DNA from: a virus
IMG/VR virus record: IMGVR_UViG_3300046820_000975
Span: 47,925 to 111,924 of that record
Direction: 5' to 3' (one strand)
Length of the DNA: 64,000 nucleotides
In this document: positions 16,738-41,968 of the stretch, in pieces
Numbering within the stretch: position 1 is the stretch's first letter
Layout of the letters: each line of letters starts with the position of its first letter
Program-made: the position numbers and the translations under genes
The notes under the pieces: model-generated
Database searches by the model: none
The model's input: the letters and a program-made list of their open reading frames with translations, nothing else
What the model was told of the DNA's origin: nothing

Positions 16738-17319
16738 ATGAGAGAAGCTAGAAAACCAAACTTAAATGGTCCCAGATACAGAAAGCCAAGCAAGAATCTT
16801 TTAACAAAAGAATTCATTAAAAAGTTAAGAGAGAATGTTCCTGGTTGTAATGTGTTATCTGATGATCAAATTAAGGAAGTGATTTACAAGTTTAACACAA
16901 ATGTCTGGAAAACAGTCATTGAAGTTAGAGATGGTGTAGAATTACCAAACTTGTTAGGTCATGTGTTTATTGGAACTTGCCAACCAAAGAAATCTAAAAA
17001 TGTAGATTTCAAAGCAAGTGCAGATTATTTAAAAGTAATTCAGCACAGAAATTGGGAAAGTGACAATTATCTAGCAAAGATCTTTTATACTACTTATGGA
17101 ACTAGATATCGTTTTAAAAACAATGAGATCTGGGCATTTAATCCAGCACGTGCGTTTACAAGGATGGTAGGTAAAACTTACCCTCAGCTTTGGAAACAAT
17201 ATGTTGTGGTTGATCCAACAAGAAAAATTAGTAAGTTGTTTAAAAGCTATGATTATCAAATACAGCGAGTAGAACAAACTAAAGATACAATAGAAAATTA
17301 CAACGAATTTGACTTATGA
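16738..17319 (+). CDS. IHF/HU-like DNA-binding protein (crAss-like)
   Basis: Basic 193-aa protein; helix-helix followed by GVELPNLLGHVFI beta-turn; position before the tail tube and stabilisation genes. Confidence 0.6.
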   Translation: MREARKPNLNGPRYRKPSKNLLTKEFIKKLRENVPGCNVLSDDQIKEVIYKFNTNVWKTVIEVRDGVELPNLLGHVFIGTCQPKKSKNVDFKASADYLKVIQHRNWESDNYLAKIFYTTYGTRYRFKNNEIWAFNPARAFTRMVGKTYPQLWKQYVVVDPTRKISKLFKSYDYQIQRVEQTKDTIENYNEFDL

Positions 17320-17987
17320 TAACAATAGGTGAAGTTACTTCAAGATTACGTAATCAGTTTAAATCATCAAAATATGATGCATTTATGACTGATCGCTTTA
17401 TCTATTCTATGGTCATGAAGCATGCAAGAATGCTTATGCGTAGACAAGATAGTTTAAATAAGTTGATGAAGTTCAATTCAATATTCCAGTCACTTGACTT
17501 TATGGAATTAATTGATGTTGATAGAGCACAAGCTGGTTGTAGAGGTATTGTTACTGGTTGTTATTTTAAGCGTACAAAAACAAAACTTCCAGCATTAATG
17601 GAAGGTTATTGGGGACCATTATTACGTTCAGTTACATCAATAGATTTATCACAAGATGTGACTCCTACATATCCAAACAGCTTTGAACAAATGTCAAAGC
17701 AAAAAACATTCAAATACAATACAAGAAAGTATTATTGGTATCTTGATGGATACTTGTATTTTCCTAATTTAGATTGGGATGCTATTCGTATTGAAGGTGT
17801 GTTTGAAGGAGATGTAAGTAAATATAACTGTGACCCATCAGATCTATGTAAATTTGTACAAGATGAGGAAATCAGAGTTCCTGAGTTTCTTTTAGCTGAA
17901 GTTGAACAATTGGTTTCTAAAGATTTAAGTTTGTTGTTACAAATACCACAAGATACTGACTCTGATAACCGTCATATAAATCGCTAA
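17316..17987 (+). CDS. Tail ring/tubular protein
   Basis: 223 aa; YYWYLDGYLY and IEGVFE motifs; ATGA overlap; synteny. Confidence 0.6.
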   Translation: MITIGEVTSRLRNQFKSSKYDAFMTDRFIYSMVMKHARMLMRRQDSLNKLMKFNSIFQSLDFMELIDVDRAQAGCRGIVTGCYFKRTKTKLPALMEGYWGPLLRSVTSIDLSQDVTPTYPNSFEQMSKQKTFKYNTRKYYWYLDGYLYFPNLDWDAIRIEGVFEGDVSKYNCDPSDLCKFVQDEEIRVPEFLLAEVEQLVSKDLSLLLQIPQDTDSDNRHINR

Positions 17988-22400: not shown

Positions 22401-24119
22401 TTAGATAACAAAGATGCATTTAGAGGTGTATTTAGTGTGCGTAACTCTTATGCTTATTTGTTTTATAATGGTGTACGTGACTTCTATACAGAAAGTGAAT
22501 TAAACTTAGCGTATAGAGATTATGGTGAACCTGATACAGAAAAGTTTTATGATGTTTATGGAGGATCATTTGCTGATCTTTCTACAATGTTTAGATCTGA
22601 CAAAATTACATCTGCAATACAATATAAATATGATTTATCACTTTCATCCAGCAAGTTATTCTCTAACTTTGCATCTTGGGGATCAATCTTACCACGTGAC
22701 TACGACCCTGAAATCTACAGCACATGTTTTGAGTATTACCCTAAACGAGCAATCTACTCTTTACAACATCAGTCAGGGTTAAAGCGTGATAACTGGAGAA
22801 ACTATTTACCACTCAACTACAAAGATTTCAGTGGTAAAATTTCCACAATCAAAGCCTTAAATGCTCAAGGTGCTATTATATTATTTGAAGATGCAGAACC
22901 AGTACAATTTGCTGGTGTTGACCAACTTCAAACTAAATCTGGTACTAAGTTTACAATTGGTGATGGTGGATTGTTCCAGCAAAATATGCAAAGTATTGTA
23001 AATGCTGATGATTCGTTAGAGTATGGCTCATGTACCTCATCAAGATCTGCAGTAAATACACCATTTGGTTTATTCTACATATCTCAAAAACTAGGTAAGA
23101 TCATGCACTACACTGGTGGTGGATTGGATGAAATTTCACGTAATGGTCTTAAGTACTGGTTTACAAACCACTTACCAAGTAAGTTGTTACAAGCTGCAGG
23201 TGATTATAAATTGTATGACAATCCAGTATTTGGTATTGGTTGTCAAGCAATGTATGACCAACAATTTGAATTAGTATACTTTACTAAGAAGGATTACATA
23301 CCATTACGCGATGATTTGTATTACAACGATCCTACAGGTATTCCTTATTACATGGTGGAAGGAATTAAAAACTATGTTCAATTCTCTAATAAAGAATTCT
23401 TTAAACCTTGTAGTTGGACAGTAAGTTATGATCCAAAATCTAAAGCTTGGGTTAGTTTTCACTCATGGGTTCCTGATTTATTTATACCAGCGTATAGTCA
23501 TTTCTTTACAACAAAAGACAATGGTATTTGGAAACACAATAGTATGTGGAACAAATACTGTGAATATTATGGTGTACAGTATCCTTGGGAAGTTGAATTA
23601 CCAGTAATAACACCTGGTGCAATAACAACTCTCAGAAGTGTAGAATATTGGATGGATGCATATAAATACACAAATGCTGGCCAAGATTATAAACATATTT
23701 TAGATTATAATTTTGACACTGCAATTATTCATAATTCTGAGCAAATATCTGGAATTTTAAAGTTAAATTTGAAATCTAAAAATAACCCAGGTCAACAGAT
23801 ACAATATCCATTGGTAGGGTTATATGGGACTGATATCTTAGTAAGTAAAGAAGAGAATAAATATCGCTTCAATACATTCTGGGATGTTACAAATAATAGA
23901 GGAGAGTTTAACTATAATGAGACACCAATGTGGATTACTAGCTGCAATGGTTACCAACGTACGATAAATCCTTCGTATATTAATTATAACAAGTCACCTT
24001 TTGAACGTAAAAAGTTTAGACATTATGGTAATAGAATTGTATTACGCAAAAATGGTGTGATGGATGTTAAAATGATACTTAAATTACATACAACTAAACT
24101 TCTTCAAAGTCCACGATAA
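19467..24119 (+). CDS. Tail stabilisation / muzzle (nozzle) protein
   Basis: About 1550 aa, beta-rich. N-terminal F..GM.KD, GYMRDEVYSF, FGGDVYI and WTVSY...W.SFHSW.P motifs. The ATG at 19467 overlaps the upstream TAA. Confidence 0.8.
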   Translation: MSDELQNAGTNKTNTFTEGMVKDTADIYLSDKVWTHAVNAINNTHVGETGTLSNESANFKTEEAPYTIIGAVHKTDTEWILFSTNDMDSEIGIYDERTSTYTQVVNDRCLGFKRSNIITGVCKENYDCTRSVYWQDGLNPDRVLNLSRVPYKIIGDSDPSECVTPIYSDELDCDALRLHPLVDQPCVTIRKGTGAGQLNNGSYIAVVAYSENGVRLTDYSAPSQPQALWEHVGIGGSLDVKITNLDTNFHEFELVIVAVINQQTIAKRIGYYSIDQSEIHLDIFGQDLPTVDLAQIPLKHIVYEKSDKIFELGGYMIRTGVTTQPQFNYQPLANNIRVNWHSVEYPKDYYWHGGNITGYMRDEVYSFFIRWVYNTGARSASYHIPGRPKNANDSIAVGSTPDKISANETERWQVYDTSTAGLATNTITKDGGLIVDGGQMGYWESTERYPNDKPEIWGSLCGEPIRHHKMPSNETTHIHKGNNIYILGVEFVNIQHPLDENANPIKDIVGYEILRGSREGNRTIVAKGVFNNIVQYDMNGNPPAGMKGCHQNYPYNDLRPDKFLTQNYASLDEGTSDYGRINGESDIDIFKDYLFSFHSPETNFVRPYLGGNHVKIYREERGYSVGAFEVPYKHPKNKFITNAVFGMSALVSVGIAALNAVGSSTTSGGQYIAAAPYGAGTVLTSEGSRQSGIASSIPDLVNASFLQSLGISSAGGTFATAAAVATVVLSSTYYLGQAMDLVLDIFYKMIPHRDYMLQYNSHAHYDSSAALSNSAVPSGIKPMYRRNIPSGLAKYIGSGVQDFSPTYRVNNVNRNKFVMVQTASSIPTPAFSDTTRQRLSDVRATNKPFENFSQPTSTYYGAIKVDFQNQYGQLTSIVQLPTDSCVLATTPNGLMRFRSGVIFGGDVYINRYTEKNPYYFFNSWLQGEPNGTEFNYRNYVNGPAPRYWIDTNKYDITDLNITLQNWHLNFVTPSDFHRLDNKDAFRGVFSVRNSYAYLFYNGVRDFYTESELNLAYRDYGEPDTEKFYDVYGGSFADLSTMFRSDKITSAIQYKYDLSLSSSKLFSNFASWGSILPRDYDPEIYSTCFEYYPKRAIYSLQHQSGLKRDNWRNYLPLNYKDFSGKISTIKALNAQGAIILFEDAEPVQFAGVDQLQTKSGTKFTIGDGGLFQQNMQSIVNADDSLEYGSCTSSRSAVNTPFGLFYISQKLGKIMHYTGGGLDEISRNGLKYWFTNHLPSKLLQAAGDYKLYDNPVFGIGCQAMYDQQFELVYFTKKDYIPLRDDLYYNDPTGIPYYMVEGIKNYVQFSNKEFFKPCSWTVSYDPKSKAWVSFHSWVPDLFIPAYSHFFTTKDNGIWKHNSMWNKYCEYYGVQYPWEVELPVITPGAITTLRSVEYWMDAYKYTNAGQDYKHILDYNFDTAIIHNSEQISGILKLNLKSKNNPGQQIQYPLVGLYGTDILVSKEENKYRFNTFWDVTNNRGEFNYNETPMWITSCNGYQRTINPSYINYNKSPFERKKFRHYGNRIVLRKNGVMDVKMILKLHTTKLLQSPR

Positions 24120-26425
24120 TGGCACAAAATAGAGATATACTACTGAATTTTATCTTGTCTCAACGTCAGAGAATTGAGCCAGATCCTGCAAGACAAATGT
24201 TCCAGGTGGCTGGTACATCTGTGCGTCCAACAACAGCTAACAACATGATGCAGAGTGCTGTTGCAAACGTAGCTAAACAAAAACAAGCTCAAGCTCAAGC
24301 ACAAGCTCAGGCTGCAGCTGCGCAAGCAGCACATGAAGCTGAATTGGAAAGATTGCGTACTCAGTATGGTCAACAAGCAGCATCACGTATGACATCTGCT
24401 CAAGTAGCTCAAGCTAACAGAATGAGTCAACAAGCTGCTGCTGCACCACAAGCAACTGTAGCGCAAACTCAAACTCCTACAACAGTACAACAAATTCAAA
24501 ATTTTGCTACTCACCCATTGCAATCAATGACAGGTCGTGAGAATAATTTTGATATGTTGGCAGGTATTCCAGGTTATATAGCAACGGTAGCAGCTCCAAA
24601 TACTGCATACAATTTAACAGTTGGATTGCCTGATACTGCAGCAGATATTGCCAATGCAACAATTGGTGCTTCAGGAGAACTTTTAACTGGGCAACCTATT
24701 TCGCCAGAAACAAAACTTGCTGCATATAATACAGCTAATCGTTTATTAGATGCATCAGCAGTTTTACCTGTTGGTAAAGCTATTCAACCTGTAATGAAAG
24801 TATTTGGTCCTACAATGGAAGAAGTTGCAATGGCAGGAAAACATATATTACATTCAGGTGTAGGTCAAGTTGCAGAACAAGCTGCACACAAAGCTGCACA
24901 TAAGGCTGTTCACCATCAAGTTGAACATTTGGCTGACCATGGCGCAGATCAAAATGCCAATCAAACTCATCAATATACACAAAATATGAATAACTCATAT
25001 GAAAATCCATCACATGCTTATGGTGGTTTAATGAAATTTTTAGTAGGTGGAAGTAAAATTCATATTGATCCATCAAAGAAGGGAACGTTTACTGCTCAAG
25101 CTACTCGTATGAATATGGGTATCCAAGAAGCTGCTAGACATATTATGGCTAACAAAGAAGATTATTCACCTGAAATGGTTAAGAAAGCTGTGTTTGCACA
25201 TAACTTTGCAAAACAAATGGGTGGGTCATTAGAACAATATGGTTATGCAGGTGAAGTTTCTCCTAATGCACCTATTGATTTTAGTAACTATGTACCAGCT
25301 GCAAATAATACATATATAGATAGAAGTGGTGCAGGTCAACCTATGCAGATTGTTAATGGTGCACTTCAATATGTTCCACAACCACAAATCAAACCTGCTG
25401 CTACTCCTACAGTTAATGGTAGACAAATTACAGGATATACATATGATGGTACACCATTGTATAAACATGACATGGGTGGATTAGCTAAGTTTATAGCAAT
25501 GTATCCATTGCAAAAATTTGATATTGGTGGATATACTCCTGATGAACCAGGATTTGCTCCAAACATGTTTCCTGCAAGAACAACAAGATCAGTACATACA
25601 GATCCTGAAGTAGCTGCTCAAGCAGCTCGTCAACGTGTACAACAAACTACAGTACATGAACCAGCTAATGTTAATTGGTATGTTCCACAAGAAGGACAAT
25701 ATCCTCAAGCACAAATAAGTCAAGCTGGTTATCCTCAAGCTGTATATGCTCCTACTCAAAGATTTGCTCCTATAGGTAACATGCCTGCAGAAGCAATGTC
25801 TGATCAAGCTCAAATGATGAAATGGCTTGCTGCAAATCCAGGAGTATCTGGATTTACTGCTGCTTATCCTAATGGAGCACCTGCTCCAACACCTGGTAGT
25901 GTTACATATCCTATTACTGGAGGTGAAGATAAAGTAACGCCTTATAATGGAGGTGATTTACCTACAGTTGTTAAATCTGCGGTGCGTCCTTCAAAAGCTG
26001 ATCCATTTGGTAATGGTTTAACAAAAGATGATGTTAAGAAAGTTCAACGTGAACTTATTGCTTCTGGTATTTTGGAACCATCGGGTAAGAAATTTGCTAA
26101 TGGAGAAGATCGCGAAGTTGACGGCATGTGGGGTCCTAAAACTCAAGCAGCGTATGAAAAGTATATTGCTAAAAAGAATTTAGAAAGTATGGAACTTATG
26201 CCTGAAAGATGGAATACTCCTTCCATGGAACAATATGTACCAGGGCAAATTCCAACACAAGCTCCAGCTGAACCATCACCAATGCCTCAACGTTATGCAG
26301 GTATGGATATTCAACCACGTCGTACTGGTAGTGCTTTAAAAACTGAAAAGCGTGGCAAAGATGAAAAAGCTTATGGTGGATACAGTGGATATGGATTTGC
26401 TAAATGGTTAGATCAATTTAAATAA
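24119..26425 (+). CDS. Internal virion/cargo protein, modular, with a C-terminal peptidoglycan-binding domain
   Basis: Q/A/P-rich; GG-motif linkers; DVKKVQREL...VDGMWGPKTQAAY matches the PG_binding_1 pattern. Confidence 0.6.
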   Translation: MAQNRDILLNFILSQRQRIEPDPARQMFQVAGTSVRPTTANNMMQSAVANVAKQKQAQAQAQAQAAAAQAAHEAELERLRTQYGQQAASRMTSAQVAQANRMSQQAAAAPQATVAQTQTPTTVQQIQNFATHPLQSMTGRENNFDMLAGIPGYIATVAAPNTAYNLTVGLPDTAADIANATIGASGELLTGQPISPETKLAAYNTANRLLDASAVLPVGKAIQPVMKVFGPTMEEVAMAGKHILHSGVGQVAEQAAHKAAHKAVHHQVEHLADHGADQNANQTHQYTQNMNNSYENPSHAYGGLMKFLVGGSKIHIDPSKKGTFTAQATRMNMGIQEAARHIMANKEDYSPEMVKKAVFAHNFAKQMGGSLEQYGYAGEVSPNAPIDFSNYVPAANNTYIDRSGAGQPMQIVNGALQYVPQPQIKPAATPTVNGRQITGYTYDGTPLYKHDMGGLAKFIAMYPLQKFDIGGYTPDEPGFAPNMFPARTTRSVHTDPEVAAQAARQRVQQTTVHEPANVNWYVPQEGQYPQAQISQAGYPQAVYAPTQRFAPIGNMPAEAMSDQAQMMKWLAANPGVSGFTAAYPNGAPAPTPGSVTYPITGGEDKVTPYNGGDLPTVVKSAVRPSKADPFGNGLTKDDVKKVQRELIASGILEPSGKKFANGEDREVDGMWGPKTQAAYEKYIAKKNLESMELMPERWNTPSMEQYVPGQIPTQAPAEPSPMPQRYAGMDIQPRRTGSALKTEKRGKDEKAYGGYSGYGFAKWLDQFK

Positions 26426-26431
26426 ACCAAT

Positions 26432-29290
26432 ATGATAGACAGTTTTTTAAGAATTGCGGGTGTAAAAAGTGAAGCTGAATTTTACAAAAAATACCCAACA
26501 CAGGAATCTTTTTTTGAAGATCATCCTGAAGCTATTGAATTGTCTAAACATGAAATAGGAGGACAGTTTAGAATTAGAGATACTGAAACAAACCCTATGA
26601 TGTTAAAGGCTGCTGAAGGATTTCAAATGCCTGGTTATACACCACAAGAAGGTGATAACATTTATACACAAACATCACAACATACTCTTGCTGATTTAAA
26701 AAACAGTGATTGGAACAAAGGTCTTGCTACTATTAACAGCTTGGGTAACTATAACAATATGTTAGGTCAGTTACCTGACAAAGGTTTATTTGGTAAAATT
26801 AAAGCTGGCGCTGGTATTGCTGCTGGTGCTTCAGGTGCCATATTAGGATATGAAAAAATGTTCAATCCTAATAAAACAACTACAAACACTTTAGTTAATA
26901 CAAATACTGGTGAATTTGGTTCAGCTGAAGATGTTATTAAACAACGTGCTAAAACTGCTAAAGAAAAAGAAGTTAGTACTGCGTTAGGTGTACACCCTCC
27001 AATGGTTGCACAGAATAATGAATTTTCATTTCCTAATTTTGCACCTGGTACTCCTGAGTTTAATAACTTTGCAACAAATGGTTTTCAAGGTTTAGGAGCA
27101 AAAACATCTCCTACTAAACCTACAGTTGCTAGTGGTCCAACTAATACTGCTCCTGTTCAACCAACAACATCTACTGCACCAGGTTCAACCATGAAAGCTA
27201 CTGGTTCTGGTATGCAATCAATGTATAATCAAAATGAAATTGATCAACAGTTAGGTTTAACAACTAATCAGTATGGTGGATTAACCAAGTTTTTACCTGA
27301 TGAAGCATACACAGATGAATACCCAATGATGGCAAAAGGTGGGTATACTGTAACAAGAAGTCATGATCGTAAAGGTAAAACTCACAAAGTAACAGGACCT
27401 GATGGAACTGTTAAGTACTTTGGTGATTCTAAGTTAGGACAACATCCTAATGATCCTGCAAGAAAGAAAGCTTTTTATGCTAGACATAAACATAACTTAG
27501 AAAAAAATCCTTATTTCAGAGCATTTGCTAGAGCTACTTGGGAAGAAGGTGGTGAAGTTAATGAAATGAAACATGGTGGTGAAATGATACGTAGAGCAGA
27601 TGGTAGTTATTCACAAAGAGGATTATGGGATAATATTAGAGCCAATGCAGGTTCTGGTAAAAAGCCTAGCAAAGAGATGTTAGAACAAGAAGCAAAGATA
27701 AAAGCTGCTTATGGTGGATTAATGAGATTTGAAGAAGGAGGCGCAGGTAATACAAATCAACCTGTTACACAAACAAAACAAATATCAGGAACTACACAGG
27801 CTATACCTGGTCAACAAGCATCTTATAATGCAACTATTACTCCAGGTAATCAAAATACAGGAAATACTGTAAATGCTTTAAATACTTCTGCTACTGTTGG
27901 TAATAATAATTATTCAGTAACAGGTAATGCTAATGTTGCAAATGATAGATTAGCAGATTATGGTGTAAATGCAAATGTAAACAAAGGTAATTTTAGTGGA
28001 GGTGCTAGTTATAACACTACAACTCAACCAGGAAGTCCAGATAAATATACTGCAAATGCTGCTTATAATTCTCCATCAGGTTTAAACATAAATGGTTCTC
28101 TCAATGGAACAACTGCTACTGGTGTCAATGATGTAAATCTTGGAGCTTCTTACAATAAAAATAATGTACAAGCACAAGCACAATATACTAGAAATTTAAA
28201 TACACCTGGTGCTTATAATTATACAGGTTCTGTTGGATATGGTACACCTAAGATGAATATAACTGGTAATGTTAGTGGTAATAATAATGCACCAGTAAGT
28301 TCATATGGTGTAACAGCTGGATATTCACCAGCTCCTGGTGTAACAGCTACTGCAAATTATACACATAATGTAGGATCAAGTCCAGAACAACCAGCTAACT
28401 CTGCCAATGTTGGAATGCGTTATAATGTTCCAAGTTCTACACCAAGACAACAACCAAAAACATTTACAAATGCTGTACCTGCTCCTGATCCATTTTTGTC
28501 TTCAACACAACAACAAAAATTTGGAGGATTGATGAAATTTGTAAATGGTGGTGAACCTACGTTTAAACAATGGTTTGCAGAAAATGCAGGCAGACCTGAT
28601 GTAATGAGTAATGTTGGTAATTACCAAGCATTGCAACGTATGTTTTTAGATGAGAACCCTATGGCTCAAACAGCTCAGGGTGCATATGGTCCAACAAACA
28701 ATGGGATGTTCAGTAATGAACCTGCGCAATCAGCATTATCTGCACCAATGCAATCACAATATACTGGTAGAAATGCAGGTACACGTTCTGGTATGGCGTC
28801 TGTATATAATACTAATCAACAAACAGATTGGACAGATCCTGCAATAGCTGGTGCTAATACAGCAAATGTAGCACCAACAGCTAACCAATTAAAATTCCAA
28901 CAGTTTGCAAACAAGTCTATCAAACGTGGAGATGATTCAGGAACAATTGCTGCTAATAATGCATTGCAAGGTTTAGGTATGGCTAGCTCAGCTTTAGGTA
29001 CCATGGATAAAGAAGCAGAGTACAATAAAAGATTGCGTGAAATTGGTAATACAAATTTCTCTACACAACCTTCAAATCCAACAAATCCATTTGGTAATTA
29101 TACACTAAATGCTGGTCCTGCATCTAACTTTGGTTTAGTAGCAAACACTCCAATACAAGATATTGGTACTAGTGGAATTGCTGCAAAATATGGTGGATCT
29201 AAAATGTATAGAGAAGGTGGTACATATTTATTGTCACCTGAAGAAGTTCGTAACATTTTAGCTAATGGTGGTGAAGTAGAGTTCATATAA
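26432..29290 (+). CDS. Internal virion/cargo protein, modular (basic modules plus a beta-barrel-like domain)
   Basis: N-terminal SEAEFYKKYP..ESFF motif; about 12 GG motifs; Asn/Gly/Tyr-rich amphipathic strand region; ends ILANGGEVEFI. Confidence 0.6.
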   Translation: MIDSFLRIAGVKSEAEFYKKYPTQESFFEDHPEAIELSKHEIGGQFRIRDTETNPMMLKAAEGFQMPGYTPQEGDNIYTQTSQHTLADLKNSDWNKGLATINSLGNYNNMLGQLPDKGLFGKIKAGAGIAAGASGAILGYEKMFNPNKTTTNTLVNTNTGEFGSAEDVIKQRAKTAKEKEVSTALGVHPPMVAQNNEFSFPNFAPGTPEFNNFATNGFQGLGAKTSPTKPTVASGPTNTAPVQPTTSTAPGSTMKATGSGMQSMYNQNEIDQQLGLTTNQYGGLTKFLPDEAYTDEYPMMAKGGYTVTRSHDRKGKTHKVTGPDGTVKYFGDSKLGQHPNDPARKKAFYARHKHNLEKNPYFRAFARATWEEGGEVNEMKHGGEMIRRADGSYSQRGLWDNIRANAGSGKKPSKEMLEQEAKIKAAYGGLMRFEEGGAGNTNQPVTQTKQISGTTQAIPGQQASYNATITPGNQNTGNTVNALNTSATVGNNNYSVTGNANVANDRLADYGVNANVNKGNFSGGASYNTTTQPGSPDKYTANAAYNSPSGLNINGSLNGTTATGVNDVNLGASYNKNNVQAQAQYTRNLNTPGAYNYTGSVGYGTPKMNITGNVSGNNNAPVSSYGVTAGYSPAPGVTATANYTHNVGSSPEQPANSANVGMRYNVPSSTPRQQPKTFTNAVPAPDPFLSSTQQQKFGGLMKFVNGGEPTFKQWFAENAGRPDVMSNVGNYQALQRMFLDENPMAQTAQGAYGPTNNGMFSNEPAQSALSAPMQSQYTGRNAGTRSGMASVYNTNQQTDWTDPAIAGANTANVAPTANQLKFQQFANKSIKRGDDSGTIAANNALQGLGMASSALGTMDKEAEYNKRLREIGNTNFSTQPSNPTNPFGNYTLNAGPASNFGLVANTPIQDIGTSGIAAKYGGSKMYREGGTYLLSPEEVRNILANGGEVEFI

Positions 29291-29305
29291 GAAACTGCAC
29301 TTAAT

Positions 29306-29383
29306 TTAGGAAAAGTCTAACTAATTTTGTACTTTTAAATGTAAGAGGTTTAGTGTGAGTTTCCTTTAAACTTCAAAAGTTTA
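29306..29383 (+). promoter_or_regulatory. Promoter-like motif with two 17-bp palindromic operators
   Basis: GTACTTTTAAATGT at 29329; TAAATGT-AAG-AGGTTTA (29336-29352); perfect TAAACTT-CAA-AAGTTTA (29367-29383) overlapping the ATG. Confidence 0.6.
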
Positions 29384-32300
29384 TGCAAAGAATACGTATT
29401 AAAAAAGCTCCAAATAAAGGAGACCAACGCGACTACAGTCTTTATGACAGAACTAGTTTAAATCCAGGTGCACCAGATAATACTGAGCACATAGGAACTA
29501 CTATGGGTCCAGTAGATCGCGAAGATGCCAATGTAGAAGTTGAAAGAGGTGAAGTTGTTATTGGTGATACAAACCAAGATGGTTTTTTAGAACTATTTAC
29601 GTTCACTGGTAAACCTCACAGTAAAGGAGGTACTCCAGTTAATATACCACCAGGTTCATTTATTTATTCTAATACACGTAAACTGCGTATTAAAGATGCA
29701 GAATTATTGAAAAGTCAGTTTGGACTTTCAATGAAGAAAGGTGGATGGACTCCTGCTGAAATTGCAAATAAATTTCAAATTAATGAGTATGTATCTGATT
29801 TAAAAAATCCAGATACAGATAACCTTACAAAGCGTTCTTCAGACAGAATGCTTAAAAACAATTTGCAGAAGTTAGGTATTCTTGCGTTGATTCAAGAATC
29901 AATGAAAGGATTCCCTGATGGTATTCCTGCAATTGCTGAACCTGTTATGCAAGAGATGGGCGTAGATCCATCTATTATTACTGGACAACAACCACAAGAA
30001 CAAGCTCCGCAATTACAAGAAGCTCCTGAACAAGAAGTACAAGAGCAACCACAAGAAGCACCAGCTGAAGAATCTGGAGAAGGCATGCCATCTTTAGAAG
30101 AGTTTCAAGCTATGCAAGAACAAGGTATGCAAAAGTATGGTGGATTAACACAATATGCTGGTGGTGGGATGACAGTTCAGCAAGCGCAAGCTTTAAGTAA
30201 GAATTTGATTGCTAAATATCAAGATGCTTATAAAAGAAAAGATTATGCTGCATTAGCAACATTAGCACCACAGTTAAGACAAGCATCAAATCAGATTAAT
30301 CAATTTAATGATGCTGGTTGGTATTCATTAGGTATGATACCTGGAACAGATCAATCAGCATTTAATAGTTATACAAGTCAGTTAAGTCAAGCAGCAAATG
30401 ATATTGAAAGAAATATTATACCACAAAGTAATTTTGTTAGTACTATTGGTAATCAGCTTAAAACATTAACTGATCAATATCAAGCTGATTATAATAAGTT
30501 GAATTCAGGACAATTGACAAATTTGTCAACTGAAGATATGCAAAAGATAAAACAAATCTATGAGTTAAATAATAGATTTGCAGCTCATGCAGCTAATATT
30601 AAAGCTGGTGGTGCTGGTATGCCTGTATCTGAATTAGCTAGATTACAAAATCAGTTAGCAAAATATTCAGCTCCATCATCTACTGGTGATAATGGAATGT
30701 CTAGTACATTAGATAGCGCTGAAGTATTAAATGCAGAATCATCTGCACCAGCTTCTACAAATACATATACATCATCTCCATTTAAAAAAGGTGATGTTTA
30801 TAAATCTAAATGGGGTAGTTATGAGATTGTAAATCCAGCAGCTGATGCTGATGGAATGATTCAGCTTGTTAACAAACAAAATAATGCAAAGACTAAAGTT
30901 AAGTTAAGTACAATGCAACAAGCAATTGGTACTGGTTTAACTAAAGGTGGAGCTGATCTTATTAGTACTGCTCCTGCTGAAACTCCTGCACAACCACCAG
31001 CACAACCAAGAGTTGGTTCTACAACTACTCCAAGTCAAGGAACACAAACAACACCAGCAGCTTCATCTGGAAGATCATCACAAGGTCCTTCAAGTGCTAC
31101 TACTGGACCAATGTTCTCAGATGATATTTACAAGATGCGTTATGGTGGATATTTAAAACGATTTGATGGAGCTGGTACAAACAATGTTCCATTAAACACT
31201 AATGCTACTACACCTGCAACTGATGAAGAAAAGTTTGTTAGTGATGTTTCAGTTAATGGTCAAACGTATAAGAAATATAGCAAAGGTGATTTAGTAATTA
31301 TTAAAGATGCTAATGGTAGAACATTATCATCTAAGAATATTAAAACTGGTGAAAAGACAGACTACAGACCAGATGCAACAATTACATATAATGCTAAGAA
31401 TGAGCGTATTAACATTGATGCACCAGATCCATCTGTAGATTATAAAGCTAAAGATTGGAAAGGTAAATATTCAGCAAGCGCAGATGAGTTTGAAAAACTT
31501 ATAAATGATCCAGGAAATGAAGATTTGCGTAACTCTATTTATGAAGAGTTTAAAAAAATTGCACAAGATCATGCTGCAAGAACAGGAGATAAAAGCTTAT
31601 TAAACATTGATAAAGCTAATGCTATTCAAATGCTTATTAAAGGTAACAGAGATAATGCTACCATTAATAGTGTTTATGAAAAAAATCCTGAGTTATTAAA
31701 AAGTGGAGATTGGGATAAAACTCAACCTAATGATTACGTAGATGCAGCAGGTAATAAAGTAAGTGGTAAAAACCTTATTTATAATAGAGTTGCTAGCAAA
31801 CTTGGTATTACACCAATGGATGCTCTTGGAACTAAAGTTTTCCAAGGAATTTATCAAGCTTCTCAGAATGTTGCACGTCAACCACAATACGTTGAGAAAT
31901 TTACTAAAAGTGGATTTGACATTACACCAATTGGTCTTAGTGATCAAACACGTTTAAATCAACCAATTTCTCCTGTAGATGAAATCTATGGTAACACTAC
32001 TGTAGGTCAAATGTACAAGTTAAAACAAGATCCAGAAATACCAATTACTGTTCCTCCAGGAAAGAAAGTAAAATACTATTGCGTTAAACAAGCAAATGGT
32101 ATGGGTAATGTGGTATCTGTCACTTATAATGAAGGTGAACAACCTATTGCACCTGCAGGCGCAGGAGCAGGATTTGATGACAGATCTACTGCTGCTATGA
32201 ATTGTTCACAAGAACAACCTGGATTAGAGCAAGCACCAGTTAAATCTGGCCCATGGTGGTTACCTGATATTGTTAACTATACTGGTACATTAACAGATAA

Positions 32301-33087
32301 GATTAACAGATACGAACCTACGTTAGAGCAATTAAGCTCACGTACTCCAGGATATGTTTTATTAGATCCAACACGTCAATTGGCTGCTAACCAAAGTCAA
32401 ATGCAACAATACAACGACATGCTTTCAAATACGATGGCAGGTAATGTTGCAGCAGCTACTGCGTTAGGTGCTTCTGGTGAAGGATTTAATAATGCTGCTA
32501 ATGTATTAGCATCTGTTGAGGGACAAAACGTTGGTATTGTTAATAATGTTGCGGCAAGTAATGCGCAGATTCAAAATCAACAAGATATGTTGAATGCGCA
32601 AGCACGTCAGAATTATGTTGGTCAAATGGCAACATTAAATCAAAATCTTGACAATGCTGAGCAACAACGTAAGTGGAGACAAATAGCTGCATTTAACAAT
32701 GGTACTAATAACTGGTATCGTAAAAAACAAATGGAGCAAGTATTATTCCCTCAAGTATTTATCAATCCAATCTCTGGTGATGCAGAATTTTCTGGCAAAG
32801 GTAGAGATTATGCAGGATATGATGTATATTCGCCCGCGTATGCATCTAACACAAAAGCTAATACTTTTGATGTTCAAGGTACATATAACAAATATATCAA
32901 GGCTGGTAATACAGATGCACAAGCTAAATGGTTAACAGAAAAAGAACTTGAGTTAAATAAAACTTCAAGTTCTGGTTCAGATGCTAGTTCAAGACAAGCA
33001 TATATGAATGCTATTATGAACCAATCAGCTGGTCAAGCAATTGAGCGTTGGGGCGGTGCAATTACACCTTGGGATTTTGACGTTTAA
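29383..33087 (+). CDS. Cargo (ejection) protein, crAss-like
   Basis: ANVEVERGEVV...GKPHSKGGTPVN N-terminal domain; Q/N/A-rich helical C-terminus; synteny between muzzle and vRNAP genes. Confidence 0.65.
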   Translation: MQRIRIKKAPNKGDQRDYSLYDRTSLNPGAPDNTEHIGTTMGPVDREDANVEVERGEVVIGDTNQDGFLELFTFTGKPHSKGGTPVNIPPGSFIYSNTRKLRIKDAELLKSQFGLSMKKGGWTPAEIANKFQINEYVSDLKNPDTDNLTKRSSDRMLKNNLQKLGILALIQESMKGFPDGIPAIAEPVMQEMGVDPSIITGQQPQEQAPQLQEAPEQEVQEQPQEAPAEESGEGMPSLEEFQAMQEQGMQKYGGLTQYAGGGMTVQQAQALSKNLIAKYQDAYKRKDYAALATLAPQLRQASNQINQFNDAGWYSLGMIPGTDQSAFNSYTSQLSQAANDIERNIIPQSNFVSTIGNQLKTLTDQYQADYNKLNSGQLTNLSTEDMQKIKQIYELNNRFAAHAANIKAGGAGMPVSELARLQNQLAKYSAPSSTGDNGMSSTLDSAEVLNAESSAPASTNTYTSSPFKKGDVYKSKWGSYEIVNPAADADGMIQLVNKQNNAKTKVKLSTMQQAIGTGLTKGGADLISTAPAETPAQPPAQPRVGSTTTPSQGTQTTPAASSGRSSQGPSSATTGPMFSDDIYKMRYGGYLKRFDGAGTNNVPLNTNATTPATDEEKFVSDVSVNGQTYKKYSKGDLVIIKDANGRTLSSKNIKTGEKTDYRPDATITYNAKNERINIDAPDPSVDYKAKDWKGKYSASADEFEKLINDPGNEDLRNSIYEEFKKIAQDHAARTGDKSLLNIDKANAIQMLIKGNRDNATINSVYEKNPELLKSGDWDKTQPNDYVDAAGNKVSGKNLIYNRVASKLGITPMDALGTKVFQGIYQASQNVARQPQYVEKFTKSGFDITPIGLSDQTRLNQPISPVDEIYGNTTVGQMYKLKQDPEIPITVPPGKKVKYYCVKQANGMGNVVSVTYNEGEQPIAPAGAGAGFDDRSTAAMNCSQEQPGLEQAPVKSGPWWLPDIVNYTGTLTDKINRYEPTLEQLSSRTPGYVLLDPTRQLAANQSQMQQYNDMLSNTMAGNVAAATALGASGEGFNNAANVLASVEGQNVGIVNNVAASNAQIQNQQDMLNAQARQNYVGQMATLNQNLDNAEQQRKWRQIAAFNNGTNNWYRKKQMEQVLFPQVFINPISGDAEFSGKGRDYAGYDVYSPAYASNTKANTFDVQGTYNKYIKAGNTDAQAKWLTEKELELNKTSSSGSDASSRQAYMNAIMNQSAGQAIERWGGAITPWDFDV

Positions 33088-33102: not shown

Positions 33103-35787
33103 ATGGCTACGTTTACTAATCAAACAGACCAGTTTGGTCCATTGCAACTTTATAAACCTGATTACAGTTTTCTGACTCAGGTTTATGGAACACGTCAGGC
33201 TGAATATGATCGTGGTTTTAACACAGTTAAAAGTTTATATAATTCAGCACTTAACAGTCCTGTCACTAGTGAAGCTAATGAAGCTTTTCGTCAAGAAGCT
33301 TTTAAGAAAATTCAAAACTCACTTAAATCAGTTAGTGGAGTTGACTTATCAAATCCAACTAACATAACACGCGCACAAAACTTACTAAATCCGATTACAG
33401 ATGATGAAGAGTTAATGCGTGATATGTCAGTTACACGTTATAACGCAGATCAAGAACAACGCTTAAATGCTGTTAAAAATAGTTCAGATCCTGAAATACG
33501 TAAACAATACAATGAGTATAGCGCAAAAGCTATTCAATTATCTAAAGAAGATTTACGTACAGCAAAACGTGGTACTGGTGAAGTATCTAAAGTTAGACCA
33601 GGTGAGTTTATTCCACAAGAAGATATTGCTGAATACTTAAACAAAGCAGCAAAGGAACAAGGTATTAAAATTGCTTTTTCTGAAGCTGATGGTAAAGGTT
33701 ACATTATCAATACAGAAAATGGTACACGTGCTTACGGTGCGTTTACCAACTGGGCAAAAACTATGATGGGTAATCGCTTTGACCGTCAATTACAACAAAG
33801 AGGTTATGTAGAAAGTGAGAATATTATACGTAACACAATGGCAGAAAACAAAGTAGGACGTGATGTAGCTACACAAATGGTTTCTGACAAGTTATCAAAA
33901 GAACTTACTACACAATCTGCTACTGATGGAGTTGAAGCTGACAAGCAACTTAAAGAGTTGAATGACAACATCAATCTTTATAAAAAAGAATACCCTAATG
34001 GTGTACCTGAAACTAAACTAGCAGATTTTAAAAAGCTGGTTACACAACGTGATGAATACAAAAAACAATTAGAAGAAGCACGTACAGTAAACTACAATGT
34101 ACAAAATGATGGGGCAGCTTACGTTGCTGCAAACATTGCAGGTATTTTTACTAAAGAAGCTAAGAACTCAATTGCACATAACTGGGCAAAGACAAGAGCT
34201 GATGCAACTGCAAAGACTGAATTGAAAGATGATCAGGTTGTTTTAACTAAATGGAAAATAGCGTCTGATGAGCGTCAAACCTCTATGCGTATTGCATCTT
34301 CTGAGAAAATTGCACAAATGCATGAAGCTGGTACGCAAGCACGTTGGGAAAAAGATCATGAACTTAAAGTTGCTAAACTTAAAGCAGAAAACAAATTACC
34401 TAACGAAGATCGTATTGGTACATTTGCTACTACATCAGATACAAAAGGTGTTGACATATTAGGTCAAGCTAATAAAGAAACACAAGAAAGAATGTTTAAT
34501 ACAGTATTTTCAGCTGGTGATGGTATTGTAAACCAAGTACTTGATACTAAATATCAAGGTCAGCTTTACTCTGTTATGGCAAAAGTTAAGCAGATTGAAT
34601 CTGGCAATGATGTTAAATTAACAGCAGAAGAAAAGAATCTGATTGCTCAAGTTGGTAAGCAACTTAATGTTACTGTATATAACCCAACTAACTCAGCTAC
34701 AGCTCGTGCAGTAATTGATAACATTACTACTGGTATGGTTACTAAAGCACAAGGACGTATTAAGCAATACGCTAGTATGGGTAAAAGTAGCAAAGCTGGT
34801 CAATTAGCTACTGCTCTTAATGGTGTAATATCTGATATGCATACGTTAAATGAACAATATGATAATCAGAAAAGCAACTACAAAAAAGTAGCAGCTATTG
34901 TTACAGATGGTTCAGGTCATATTAAATCTGGATTTGAAGGAGCTAAGATAACTGGATACTTTAAAGATGGTACACCTATCATTGATGTAACTGGCATGTC
35001 TGTTGAAAAACGTGACTTTGTTAGTAAACAAGTTGATGATCAATACAATACACGTGCTGGTCAAGCAGGAGCAATTTATCAATTTAATGCACTTGATGCA
35101 AAAGATGTATTTGCTATTACTAACAGTAATGGTATGGTATCTGCTAAAGATCAAAATGGTAATGATGTGGATATGAGTACTTTACGTTCATTACCTGCAG
35201 ATCAATTAAAAGAAATGCTAGGTAAAACTGCACAGGTAGCTTATGATCCAGGTAACAAGAATGTAGTAGTAAAACTTAAGGTTGATCCTTCATCAGGTAT
35301 TGCTAAAACATTAAAACTTGATCGTACATCTGTTATTGATGTAACAATTCCTTATAAAGCTATTCAAGCTAATCCAGATGACTATGGACGTTTAGGTATG
35401 TACATAAACAAAAACACAGCTAATGTTACTTCATATAATAACAATTTTGCTAAATTTGTAAGTGAACCTACTGCTACAATTACTGCGCCATCTACGTATA
35501 CAAATGCGGGATTTGACTATTCTATATCTGGAACAAGAAACAGTAATGGTCAGTATGGTTTAAATATTAACTACGAATATACAAACCCTTCAACAGGTAA
35601 AACTGAAAGACACCATTCATTTAAGCCAATCAACAATCCTGGAGATCCTGCAGAATTTCTTGCTGCTCAAAGTATGATTACCAGTGTATTTGATTCTTAT
35701 ACATTGAATAGACAACAGTATGAAGATCAAGTAAATGGTAACGTAAGTACTTATGAATATTCAGATGATGATTTTGACTTAGATTAA
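33103..35787 (+). CDS. Cargo (ejection) protein
   Basis: 894 aa; N-terminal YKPDYSFL..V....QAEYD, helical; synteny. Confidence 0.55.
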   Translation: MATFTNQTDQFGPLQLYKPDYSFLTQVYGTRQAEYDRGFNTVKSLYNSALNSPVTSEANEAFRQEAFKKIQNSLKSVSGVDLSNPTNITRAQNLLNPITDDEELMRDMSVTRYNADQEQRLNAVKNSSDPEIRKQYNEYSAKAIQLSKEDLRTAKRGTGEVSKVRPGEFIPQEDIAEYLNKAAKEQGIKIAFSEADGKGYIINTENGTRAYGAFTNWAKTMMGNRFDRQLQQRGYVESENIIRNTMAENKVGRDVATQMVSDKLSKELTTQSATDGVEADKQLKELNDNINLYKKEYPNGVPETKLADFKKLVTQRDEYKKQLEEARTVNYNVQNDGAAYVAANIAGIFTKEAKNSIAHNWAKTRADATAKTELKDDQVVLTKWKIASDERQTSMRIASSEKIAQMHEAGTQARWEKDHELKVAKLKAENKLPNEDRIGTFATTSDTKGVDILGQANKETQERMFNTVFSAGDGIVNQVLDTKYQGQLYSVMAKVKQIESGNDVKLTAEEKNLIAQVGKQLNVTVYNPTNSATARAVIDNITTGMVTKAQGRIKQYASMGKSSKAGQLATALNGVISDMHTLNEQYDNQKSNYKKVAAIVTDGSGHIKSGFEGAKITGYFKDGTPIIDVTGMSVEKRDFVSKQVDDQYNTRAGQAGAIYQFNALDAKDVFAITNSNGMVSAKDQNGNDVDMSTLRSLPADQLKEMLGKTAQVAYDPGNKNVVVKLKVDPSSGIAKTLKLDRTSVIDVTIPYKAIQANPDDYGRLGMYINKNTANVTSYNNNFAKFVSEPTATITAPSTYTNAGFDYSISGTRNSNGQYGLNINYEYTNPSTGKTERHHSFKPINNPGDPAEFLAAQSMITSVFDSYTLNRQQYEDQVNGNVSTYEYSDDDFDLD

Positions 35788-35800
35788 ACTTAACAAAACA

Positions 35801-38800
35801 ATGGCTGATCAACTAGAACCATTAAGCATACAAGATGCAATAAAACAGGCTACAGCTCCAGCAGGTGCTCAACCTAAAACTAATGATTTTGCATCTTCAA
35901 TGAATGATGTATTCAATGATGCTAATGCAAAATTTACTGTACCAGAAGATGTACCTACTTCACCATTGCGTGCGGGTGGTCCTGGTGTACAATTTTATAA
36001 TGCAGATGATGCAGCCAAATATCAACTTCAATCAGATTTTGATGCGTGGGGTTTTAATCCAAACAATCCAGCAAACTATGATCGCATGGTTGCAAAAGAG
36101 GATTGGGGTTCAGCTATTAGTAAAGGTTGGGATGGTTTAAAAACAAACTTTGGAAATACATACGTTGGTAACTTTACTGGTTATGGACGTATGGTTGATG
36201 CTATTGCTCATCTAGATATGTCTAGACTTATGGATGATGAAAGCACCATGATTGATCAGGCATATGCACAAAAACAAATGGGTAACAAAAATTTTGTTTT
36301 TGTTAAACCAGAAGAAGAAGATGACATCTTTGGAAAAAAGTTTGTTGCTGAAAGTATGCAAAGTGCTGGATTTAGCCTCGGTACTGTTGCTGCATTTGGA
36401 ACTGAATTATTAGCAGATGCGTTAATTACAGCTGCAACTGCAGGTGGAGGTATTGAAACATTTGGCGCATCTATAGCTAAATTTGGTGCTAGACTTGGAA
36501 TGGAGACAGCTGGTAAAGCTATCGGTAAAGGTGTTAGTGCTGTTGGTAAAGTAGCTAAAGGATTTACAGAAGTTGAAAGTTTAGGCAAAGGTGCATTAAA
36601 TGCTGCAGATAAAGGACTTGATGTTGCAGGTAAATTAAAAGGTGCATTGACTAGTCCTACAATTAGAAAGGAAGTAATTAATGATACATTTGAAGCCATG
36701 ACTAAAACAATGGCACAACTTTCTAATCCTAGCAAAATTGGAGAATGGAGTATGAAAGCTCTTGAAAAAACTCCATTATTAGGTACTGGTGTAAAGTTTG
36801 GTAAAACCATTCGTGCTGCTGCAAAAGGAGGAGCAGGCGCTTCTGAATTAATTGGTATGGGTCTTGGTGCTACAAGACGCGTAATGCAAGAATATAACAT
36901 GGCTTCTACTGAAGCTAACATGGAAGCTGTATCATCTTATTCAGATACTCTGGATGATATGGTAAGACAATATAAAGCATCTAATGGTGGTGACACACCT
37001 TCAGAACTTGAATTTGCATCTATGAGAAATGATGCAATGAAATCTGCTGGTGCTAACTATAAGACAAACATGTCTGTTTTATTAGCAATGAACTCACTTC
37101 AATTTGGTAACGTGTTGAATAAGTATGGTTCTGCCAATAAGTTTATACGTGACTTTATGATGGAAGGTGCAGAAGATGTACTTGCTGTTGAAGGTAAACG
37201 TATATTAAAACAAGGTGCAAAAGAAGTAGTTAAAGAAGGAGTTGAACAAGCTGGTAAACAAGCAGCAAAAGAAGGTGTTAAAGAAGCTGTTGAGCAAGGT
37301 GTAAAACAATCATTTACAAAGTTATATGAAAAAGGTGCTTTAGGTACATTAGGTCTTGTGGGACAAATCTCAAGAGACTTTGGTAAGAAGGAAGCAGCAT
37401 ATCAATTAGGTAGATCTTTTGTAAGAAACTTTGCAAAGTTTGAAGCATTAGAAGGTTTGCAAGAAAATATACAAGAAGCTTCAGGTAAAGCATGGCGCGA
37501 TTATTATGCAGCAAAACATGACACAGCTGTTAAAACTATTTATGATACATTCTCTGATGCTATAGGTGATCAAATGAGCAAGCAAGGTTTTAGAACTTTC
37601 TTGTCAGGTGCACTTGGTGGTGTGTTGTCACATGGTCCATCAATGATAATAAACAAAACAATTGCTAAAGCTGCTGAAGGTGCTAATTCATTAAATTACA
37701 GAAATGATCCTTCTCAGAATCCAGCAACACAAGCTCAAAAAGCATTGAAAGAAAACATTGCAAATCTTAATGCAATGTTTGAACAAACTTCAAGTAGTAC
37801 TATTGATAAGTCATTATTTAACTTTGCCAACCAGATTCATGCTGGTAAAGAAATGACACAGGCTGCTGCTAAAAATCAGCAGTATGAGTTTACCAATGGT
37901 AGAGATAATGCTTTATTGTCTGCTGTAATTTCAGCTAAACAAACTGGTACAGTTGATGTTCTTGCACGTTCATTCCGTGAGATGGGTAATAATATGACTG
38001 CTGAACAATTTGAAAACAACTTTGGTATAAGCCTTAGTGATACAAAATATAATTCAGTTGAAGATTTTACTAATTCAATAGGAGATGATATTGAAAAATA
38101 TTCAGAATCAATTGATGATGTTAAACGTAATGTAGGTGATTTAGCTAATCCTAATCTATATAAAGTAGGTAGCAAAGAATATTATCTTGCAATACATAAA
38201 CGTAGAACGCAAGAAGAAGCTGTTAATATTATCTCTTACAATATGTTACGTGGAGAAATGACAGCTGAACGTGTTCAACAATTAGCACAAGAAGTAAGAG
38301 CTAATCCTGTATTGGCCCATTCTGCTGATTATGTAATGCGTGTATTACACAATGGTGAGAATTTAGATGCTGAAATTGGCAATGTTCAAAGTGAAGTTAC
38401 AATACTTAATGAACAACTTAAAGGTGAAGGATTAGATCCAAAACTTAAAGCTGATTTAGAAAAACAATTAGAACTCAAAAAAGAACATCTAGTTGATTTA
38501 AAAATATGGCAGAGTTACTTTGACAAATCAGCACGTAAAAGAACAGCTGGTAAAGAAAGCGCTGTTGAGTATACTAGTGGTAAATTTGTAGGTAAAGGTA
38601 AAAAGTCAACATTTGATGATCAGGGTAAACTTGTTCAAGAATTTGAACCTACATCAGAAGAACTAAATGATCCTGAAGTACTTGCAAGATTTAAAAAGCT
38701 ATTGGTTAATTTAAATAACCAAGCTGGTATTTCTGTACAAATGACTGATGCTCAAGCGCGTGAAGCATTATCAAAAGTTACTGATATTAGTCGCCTTAAC

Positions 38801-41944: not shown

Positions 41945-41968
41945 TTGCAAATCTGAAAGCATTTTTCT

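Follow-up and report, generated by a model that had tools for sequence, protein, structure and literature searches.

An orphan array of amphipathic β-strands inserted into a probable cargo protein of a distant crAss-like phage

In the phage crAss001, cargo proteins are packed in capsid and tail, must partially unfold to exit, and are expected to form a trans-envelope channel (PMC10172136). Cargo proteins C1 (gp45) and C2 (gp46) are products of the genes located between muzzle and RNA polymerase (Bayfield et al. 2023, PMC10172136). A transmembrane helix is predicted at residues 136–158 of gp45, inside its Gly/Ala-rich region; two pieces of that protein (residues 214–245 and 425–552) have been resolved by cryo-electron microscopy (cryo-EM), and helical structures are predicted for the remaining cargo proteins, gp46, gp47, gp49, and gp50 (PMC10172136). 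Among short-tailed phages, the way through the outer membrane (OM) is known for few model phages, in which the pore proteins are helical. The podophage OM ejection proteins T7 gp14 and N4 gp52 are α-helical and virion-borne, leave first, and build an envelope conduit (PMC13434306). Described here is a β-strand stretch in P0001, a 952-residue protein encoded in a 64,000-nucleotide window, the right-hand 64 kb of the 111,924-bp IMG/VR virus record IMGVR_UViG_3300046820_000975; the phage is known from its metagenomic record alone. The stretch (nt 27815–28429 of the window) corresponds exactly to residues 462–666. As with crAss001 gp45 and gp46, the P0001 gene lies between the muzzle and virion RNA polymerase genes and is of similar size, and P0001 resembles gp45 in having an N-terminal-side Gly/Ala-rich hydrophobic stretch and repeated [YF]GG motifs, whereas gp45 carries no strand array comparable to that of P0001. 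The job presumed for the stretch is the same as that of T7 gp14 and N4 gp52, yet those proteins are helical and the stretch is all-β. Judged by gene position only, P0001 occupies the cargo slot of a distant crAss-like phage and is probably ejected into the host; neither BLASTP (best E 0.42) nor profiles of its conserved N- and C-modules (hhalign probability ≤0.7%) revealed homology with gp45 or gp46. We read the stretch, with a probability of roughly 45%, as a lineage-specific accessory part of the ejection apparatus, in the form of a protein-packed β-sheet or solenoid.

The stretch is a real, non-random array of amphipathic strands. It is composed chiefly of Asn (19.5%), Gly (12%), Ala (12%), Thr (11%), Ser (9%), Val (8%), and Tyr (7%). 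Phe occurs once, Trp is absent, and 12 of the 205 residues are charged; sequence entropy is low, six residue types making up 72% of the total. The original prediction, made from the DNA letters and translations, had described about 205 residues of amphipathic strands joined by tight turns at these coordinates, and both the boundaries and every peptide that it quoted were recovered exactly. On the Kyte-Doolittle scale, the β (period-2) hydrophobic moment of the stretch exceeds that of 500 shuffles by z = 3.2–3.5, and helical angles show no excess over shuffles. A strand-end pattern (apolar-x-apolar-x-apolar-x-apolar, with an aromatic residue last or third from last) occurs at seven positions, six of them ending in Tyr, as compared to 1.0 ± 1.1 occurrences in shuffled sequences, none of which reached seven in 2000 trials. 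Across all 24 large open reading frames (ORFs) of the window, the most β-amphipathic 120-residue segment lies in this stretch. No internal repeats were found, either in the protein by BLAST self-comparison or as tandem repeats in the DNA. When dyad periodicity, charge, and aromatic content were required together, qualifying windows were found in three of 121 proteins, and an extended run of them in P0001 only (13 windows, versus one in each of the other two proteins). Uncharged 100-residue windows do occur in 16 of 120 homologs, but these linkers are rich in Pro, Gln, Thr, and Ala and lack the dyad pattern of the stretch. P0001 itself has other low-complexity linkers at residues 201–280 and 745–830, and the other low-charge, high-dyad windows of this genome are located outside the cargo ORFs, in those of tail or ring type.

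No homolog of the array was found outside P0001. A search of 5.8 billion clusters returned 363 relatives of the protein, with coverage at residues 61–180, 281–440, and 700–952, and not one of the 363 covers residues 580–660. An exhaustive phmmer search with residues 445–690 against 1.84 billion representatives recovered the query and a single further match, the eukaryote-like repeat protein P0121, which was dismissed as spurious. P0001 gave no tblastn match in 50,697 phage records, no Pfam family at E 0.01, no PHROG family, and only noise in sequence comparison with the PDB; from Pfam at E 10, the stretch alone drew just a noise match to T4 gp7 domain VI. In the closest relative, P0002, the N-module meets the C-module directly at a single YGGLMKF motif, and residues 289–694 are wholly missing. 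All 39 relatives that carry both modules hold them within 149 residues of each other, versus ∼630 residues in P0001. The stretch is an orphan, lineage-specific insertion in a modular protein, and because the nearest relatives do without it, it is not an essential channel component. Comparison with these relatives shows a block of ∼406 residues, in which the stretch entered together with two small basic domains, at a permissive, [YF]GGLxKF-marked junction between the conserved N- and C-modules. Neither strand carries an ORF of ≥80 residues that competes with the P0001 frame, and this frame also encodes the conserved modules before and after the stretch; any translation of the gene must therefore include the stretch.

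The chemistry of the stretch was compared with that of control proteins from the Escherichia coli K-12 record, such that the barrel controls are from E. coli and not from Bacteroidota; apolar-face hydrophobicity is given on the Wimley-White octanol scale. Four barrel controls (OmpF, the OmpA membrane domain, OmpX, and OmpC) contain 17–21% charged residues, 15–18% Leu/Ile/Phe/Trp/Met, 13–17% aromatic residues, and 5–9% Asn, with an apolar-face mean of −0.53 to −0.67 kcal/mol per residue. The corresponding values for residues 462–666 are 5.9%, 5.9%, 7.8%, 19.5%, and −0.27, as compared to 10.7%, 10.7%, 6.1%, 12.2%, and −0.26 for CsgA, the nearest control in composition; CsgB has an apolar-face Wimley-White mean of −0.27. 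The dyad moment of the stretch (0.93) lies among those of OmpA, OmpX, OmpF, and OmpC (0.80–1.00), versus 0.74 for curli. Thus, like the barrels of outer-membrane proteins (OMPs; OmpA/OmpX, porins, LptD, and ushers), the stretch has antiparallel-type amphipathic strands of about nine residues, tight turns, and Tyr at strand ends, whereas it has about one-third of their charged and bulky hydrophobic residues, half of their apolar-face hydrophobicity, and no family match, signal peptide, or terminal aromatic β-signal. The OMP_b-brl family (PF13505) had no match anywhere in the phage record at E 10 and no curated OMP family matched the stretch, which, by these profile comparisons, belongs to no outer-membrane protein family. 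The absence of a signal peptide had been predicted and was borne out: the N terminus of P0001 is not signal-like, no N-terminal Sec signal was found, and the stretch is internal, starting at residue 462 of 952. The resemblance to curli-type proteins (CsgA and CsgB, Pontibacter CsgA [8c50], and FapC) consists of richness in Asn, Gln, Gly, Ser, Thr, and Ala, few charges, and weakly apolar faces. Unlike curli, the stretch is richer in Tyr, has a stronger dyad periodicity, lacks a Sec signal or CsgG-type secretion context, and sits inside what is, by gene position, a virion protein; it has no match to Pfam Curlin_rpt. In its chemistry, the stretch is a sheet of the soluble or amyloid type and not one that faces lipid. 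The proposal of a porin-like cargo module is supported as far as a strand array in a gene at a cargo position is concerned; its porin-like part is not supported, given the missing OMP family match and the curli-like composition and apolar face.

Because no homologs of the stretch were found, there was no alignment with which to improve its fold prediction. AlphaFold2 run on the single sequence returned 13 strands of six to 10 residues, with one face of Ala, Val, Tyr, Leu, Ile, and Gly and the other purely of Asn, Thr, Ser, and Gln; between the strands, tight turns of four to five residues alternate with somewhat longer links, and Tyr is clustered at either end of the strands. The predicted local distance difference test score (pLDDT) of this model is 37.6 and below 50 throughout. 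A Foldseek search of the PDB with it gave nothing below E 0.6, the top rows being β-helices with template modeling (TM) scores of 0.1–0.3. VIA-align of the same low-scoring model placed a SufB/D-type β-solenoid highest (Z 12.3, root mean square deviation [rmsd] 5.3, 222 residues aligned), with curli CsgA at Z 8.6 (8c50) and 7.3 (8enq), followed by adhesins and tailspikes, and there were no membrane barrels among the top 50. A soluble β-solenoid had been named beforehand as the outcome that would speak against a porin-like module, and the solenoid-like AlphaFold2 model is of that kind, at low confidence only. Since the second available model, from the ESM Atlas, is also of low confidence, the robust statement from prediction is limited to the presence of regular short strands.

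In relatives of P0001, the same slot is occupied by a different and conserved β module. At least 17 related proteins carry, immediately behind the GLWDNIR domain and an EGG motif, a module of ∼125 residues (NPTRRG...GFGFNNEKF...NASYRK; here the P0076-type module), 74–100% identical among 17 proteins, mostly C-terminal, and internal and GG-bounded in four; no description of it was found in the literature. One copy forms the end of an ORF in L039, a locus found by pattern scan of metagenomes, while the IMG/VR loci retrieved with P0076 are without the β tail. That ORF is the syntenic counterpart of P0001, matching its residues 290–550, and the neighboring ORFs match the other cargo ORFs of the window. 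The composition of the P0076-type module is OMP-like (15% charged, 19% Leu/Ile/Phe/Trp/Met, 14% aromatic, apolar face −0.66). With an alignment of 17 sequences, AlphaFold2 predicts eight antiparallel strands at pLDDT 65–87, and the VIA neighbors of this model are nearly all OM barrels: SusC-like BT1762 (Z 10.7, rmsd 5.7, 121 residues aligned), Vibrio OmpT (10.0), PapC (9.8), KdgM (9.6), and TamA, FhaC, and LptD (9.3–9.1), in a range extending down to 9.0. Hybrid-barrel states of BamA and TamA are among the structural neighbors. Foldseek assigned probabilities of 0.99–1.00 to FimD, PapC, and OccD2, at E values of only 0.03–0.1, and the ESM Atlas neighbors agree with the likeness to OM barrels. 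Three copies folded together scored 0.50, versus 0.00 for the best of three controls; among proteins of solved structure, 20 of 30 one-chain pairs and one of 23 single chains attain the mark for this complex score, a calibration that is only rough here, as an own alignment and three copies were used. Contacts agreed to at least 87% between the three-copy runs, partner pLDDT was at least 82, and the last strand of one copy was placed antiparallel to the first strand of the next, giving an open sheet rather than a closed one. The model supports, but does not show, self-binding of the module.

The stretch and the P0076-type module are not homologous. A BLAST match at E 3e-5 fell to E 0.47 once composition was corrected for, and hhalign gave a probability of 0.7% (E 0.08), which lies inside the spread given by 30 shuffles; homology was rejected as compositional. 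A profile of the module found nothing in this phage record by hmmsearch. The two are alike in being all-β and in following the GLWDNIR domain at the same slot of a syntenic cargo gene. They differ in that the module is conserved and confidently modeled, whereas the orphan stretch is longer and of far lower hydrophobicity. That the slot can hold an OM-type sheet follows from the structure predicted for the module; that the stretch is such a sheet does not. As modeled, the P0076-type module is a better candidate than the stretch for a phage-delivered β pore.

The reading of the stretch as a protein-packed sheet or solenoid would operate as follows. The stretch would be under selection for β-sheet formation. 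P0001 is probably kept unfolded or loosely folded in the virion, like other crassvirus cargo, and threaded through the tail at ejection; for a stretch with near-zero charge and without a bulky hydrophobic core, an unfolded state would be easily maintained. Outside the virion, it would fold or self-associate, and the weak Ala/Val/Tyr face of the resulting sheet or solenoid would pack on protein, either its own or that of other copies, and not on lipid. Its role would then be that of a spacer or self-assembling part of an envelope-spanning ejection apparatus, not that of a classical BAM-inserted porin. Several points weigh against this account. The stretch has neither the 19–23-residue sequence repeats nor the Ser/Gln/Asn ladder consensus of curli, and its low pLDDT gives the solenoid topology of AlphaFold2 little weight. 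The ESM Atlas model of residues 445–666 instead resembles models of LptD, usher, TcfC, and Porin_3, with query-normalized TM scores of 0.55–0.75 (0.71–0.75 over ∼210 residues for the LptD, usher, and porin types); the nearest named clusters in the ESM Atlas feature search were Porin_4 (0.80), Attacin_C (0.79), Gloverin (0.78), and BcsC_C (0.77), scores that, being below 0.9, are leads only. Tyr at both strand ends and a charge-free polar face would also suit the lining of a pore, and the OM-type sheet predicted at the same slot of a syntenic relative makes a membrane role for that slot plausible. Presence of P0001 in the virion, its unfolding, and its refolding are carried over from crAss001, to whose gp45 and gp46 it has no detectable homology.

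Some of these points bear directly on a reading in which the stretch, after ejection, enters the host OM, either as a ∼14-stranded monomeric barrel or by joining an oligomeric sheet, and forms, lines, or anchors the OM end of the DNA conduit, as an analog of the module at the same slot in relatives. The number of strands (13–14), their alternating turns, the Tyr at both ends, and the uncharged polar faces would fit such an element, as would the likeness of the ESM Atlas model to OM proteins and the OMP-like composition and predicted structure of the P0076-type module; the OM ejection proteins described in podophages are helical (PMC13434306), and this group may use another solution. The insertion into lipid is nevertheless unlikely. 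The apolar faces are half as hydrophobic as those of real barrels and equal to those of curli, bulky hydrophobic residues are scarce (with the single Phe and no Trp noted above), and the apolar runs of four to five residues, with six residues from Tyr to Tyr along a strand, would be short for a bilayer. Homology to the P0076-type module is lacking, no OMP family was matched even at E 10, the AlphaFold2 model is solenoid-like, and close relatives all do without the stretch. A narrower form of the same idea has NVGMRYNV, at the end of the last strand, act as a β-signal on host BamA, the stretch being a substrate or decoy of the BAM machinery that inserts as a barrel or blocks OMP assembly or superinfection. 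The motif fits a loose polar-x-Gly-x-x-aromatic-x-hydrophobic consensus, and BamA and TamA hybrid-barrel states recur among the neighbors of the relatives' module. The original prediction had seen in it a porin-like C-terminal signal, which was not upheld: the same pattern ends six other strands, the loose consensus is also found at residues 41 and 927 of P0001, the last residue is Val and not Phe, Tyr, or Trp, and the motif lies 286 residues before the C terminus, with a Pro-rich linker following it. Nothing indicates proteolytic release at the GG motifs, and a BAM-directed function is very improbable.

A reading with no fold at all would make the stretch a disordered, low-complexity spacer, either a flexible uncharged tether or near-neutral filler grown by slippage in an AT-rich genome. 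Low sequence entropy, pLDDT values below 50 along the whole length, the lack of conservation anywhere, the other low-complexity linkers of P0001, and the uncharged windows of 16 of 120 homologs are all consistent with a spacer. This explanation is nonetheless doubtful, as dyad periodicity and Tyr-terminated strands far exceed what composition would lead one to expect, the uncharged linkers of relatives are of another kind and extended qualifying runs are found in P0001 only, the DNA bears no tandem repeat as a sign of slippage, and two independent predictors give regular strands.

If crAss-like phages did deliver β modules that assemble in or at the OM without Sec or BAM, this would be a new entry mechanism, a natural case of a polypeptide that is stored unfolded and forms a barrel on insertion from the cell exterior, and a β-type component of an OM ejectosome, all characterized ones being helical. 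Because the stretch is an orphan with curli-like chemistry and its fold predictions disagree, it cannot carry that claim alone. The broadest version, in which the stretch is a signal-less, charge-free, virion-delivered β-sheet that enters or lines the host OM and belongs to a wider class of swappable β-barrel-type cassettes in cargo proteins of environmental crAss-like phages, is offered tentatively and considered improbable; within such a class, the P0076-type module, modeled as an open eight-stranded OM-type sheet with copies joined edge to edge, would be the cleaner member. The main value of the stretch is comparative: the slot after the GLWDNIR domain of modular cargo proteins accepts unrelated all-β cassettes, and the stretch directs attention to the P0076-type module as the better experimental object.

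The remainder of P0001 is modular as well (Table 1). The residues of the two basic domains that precede the stretch, the first of which can also be written KGKTHKVTGPDG...FGD...YARHK, are covered by 78–108 homologs at up to 89% identity and in many different architectures, in which they are paired with DUF5754, DUF5872, DUF3597, a YkuD transpeptidase domain, or a SET domain; the P0001 copy of both domains has no Pfam match. By this pattern of sharing, the P0001 family is a set of shuffled cassettes. The double GG motifs reported on either side of the stretch were confirmed (motifs 2 and 3), and they are instances of a [YF]GG-x2-3-[KR]-[FYM] motif, usually followed by GG, that is found in this genome only in three consecutive cargo ORFs (24119–33087) and in 70 of 120 relatives, many of which have a counterpart of motif 4 at 30–40 residues from the C terminus. 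Similar [YF]GG motifs occur in crAss001 gp45 at residues 208, 331, 426, and 561, positions that are the borders of both pieces resolved by cryo-EM. The motif marks points at which modules join or swap, and its placement suggests a docking or boundary element, instead of or besides a cleavage site. The Gly/Ala-rich stretch of the N-module recalls residues 121–158 of crAss001 gp45; its one match among PDB sequences, a carboxysome shell protein at E 0.029, does not rise above chance.

Table 1. Features of P0001 and of its locus. Positions are nucleotides of the window unless another locus or protein is named; aa, amino acids.
Feature	Position	Strand	Remarks
Ring protein gp40 homolog	17316-17987	+	Match to crAss001 gp40
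Muzzle homolog, 1574 aa	19395-24119	+	crAss001 gp44, BLASTP E 2e-5 pairwise; E 2.8e-4 in second comparison
First cargo-slot ORF, 768 aa	24119-26425	+	GG motif AYGGLMKFLVGG at aa 301; syntenic with L039:2749-3516
P0001, 952 aa	26432-29290	+	Modular; second of four cargo-slot ORFs between muzzle and RNA-polymerase-related giants
Conserved N-module, aa 1-288	26432-27295	+	∼40 homologs cover aa 81-160; P0002 57-80% identical
Gly/Ala-rich hydrophobic stretch, aa 118-140, in N-module	26783-26851	+	Conserved in ∼40 relatives
Junction motif 1, YGGLTKFL, aa 281-288, end of N-module	27272-27295	+	
Insertion cassette, ∼406 aa, aa 289-694	27296-28513	+	Not present in closest relative
Two small basic domains, very conserved	27317-27706	+	KGKTHKVTGPDG...FGD (aa 296-372); GGEMIRR...GLWDNIRAN (aa 382-425)
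Junction motif 2, YGGLMRFEEGG, aa 427-437	27710-27742	+	
β stretch, aa 462-666	27815-28429	+	Uncharged, Asn/Gly/Ala/Thr/Tyr-rich; 13-14 short amphipathic strands
Pro/Gln/Thr-rich linker, aa 667-696, last strand to motif 3	28430-28519	+	From sequence
Junction motif 3, FGGLMKFVNGG, aa 697-707	28520-28552	+	
Conserved C-module, aa 708-952	28553-29290	+	71% identical to P0002; 23-41 homologs cover it
Motif 4, YGGSKMYREGG, aa 920-930, in C-module	29189-29221	+	
Third and fourth cargo-slot ORFs, 1234 and 894 aa	29383-35787	+	Syntenic with L039 ORFs; RYGGYLKRF at aa 587 of third
Three giant ORFs, 2047, 4442, and 1992 aa	35801-61277	+	Weak homology to crAss001 gp47, gp50 (RNA polymerase), gp49
P0076-type module in relatives	L039:2322-2726; P0076 aa 478-600; P0122 aa 333-459	+ (L039)	End of ORF L039:51-2729

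The window has a G+C content of 32–40%, and its large genes are all on the + strand. PHROG matches identify the large terminase, portal, and major head protein at its left end, and the order that follows, from ring protein through muzzle and four ORFs to the polymerase-related giants, is as in crAss001. The muzzle homolog also matches phrog_37948, a virion structural protein (E 2.5e-64). Among the giants, gp47 (E 9e-6) and gp50 (E 3e-11) of crAss001 align with 35801–55297 and gp49 (E 5e-5) with 55299–61277. The 4442-residue ORF (41969–55297) joins gp47-like and gp50 (RNA polymerase)-like regions and has a DprA-like match at residues 4172–4307 (phrog_768, E 3e-10).

Two further β-amphipathic segments were observed in this phage. 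The second most β-amphipathic window of the proteome spans 35233–35592 (residues 711–830 of ORF 33103–35787, the fourth in the cargo slot); it has an ordinary charge content (17%) and looks like a soluble β domain. At the start of the record, outside the window, a 384-residue ORF (G000:C1:54-1208) has a charge-poor first 220 residues with strong dyad periodicity.

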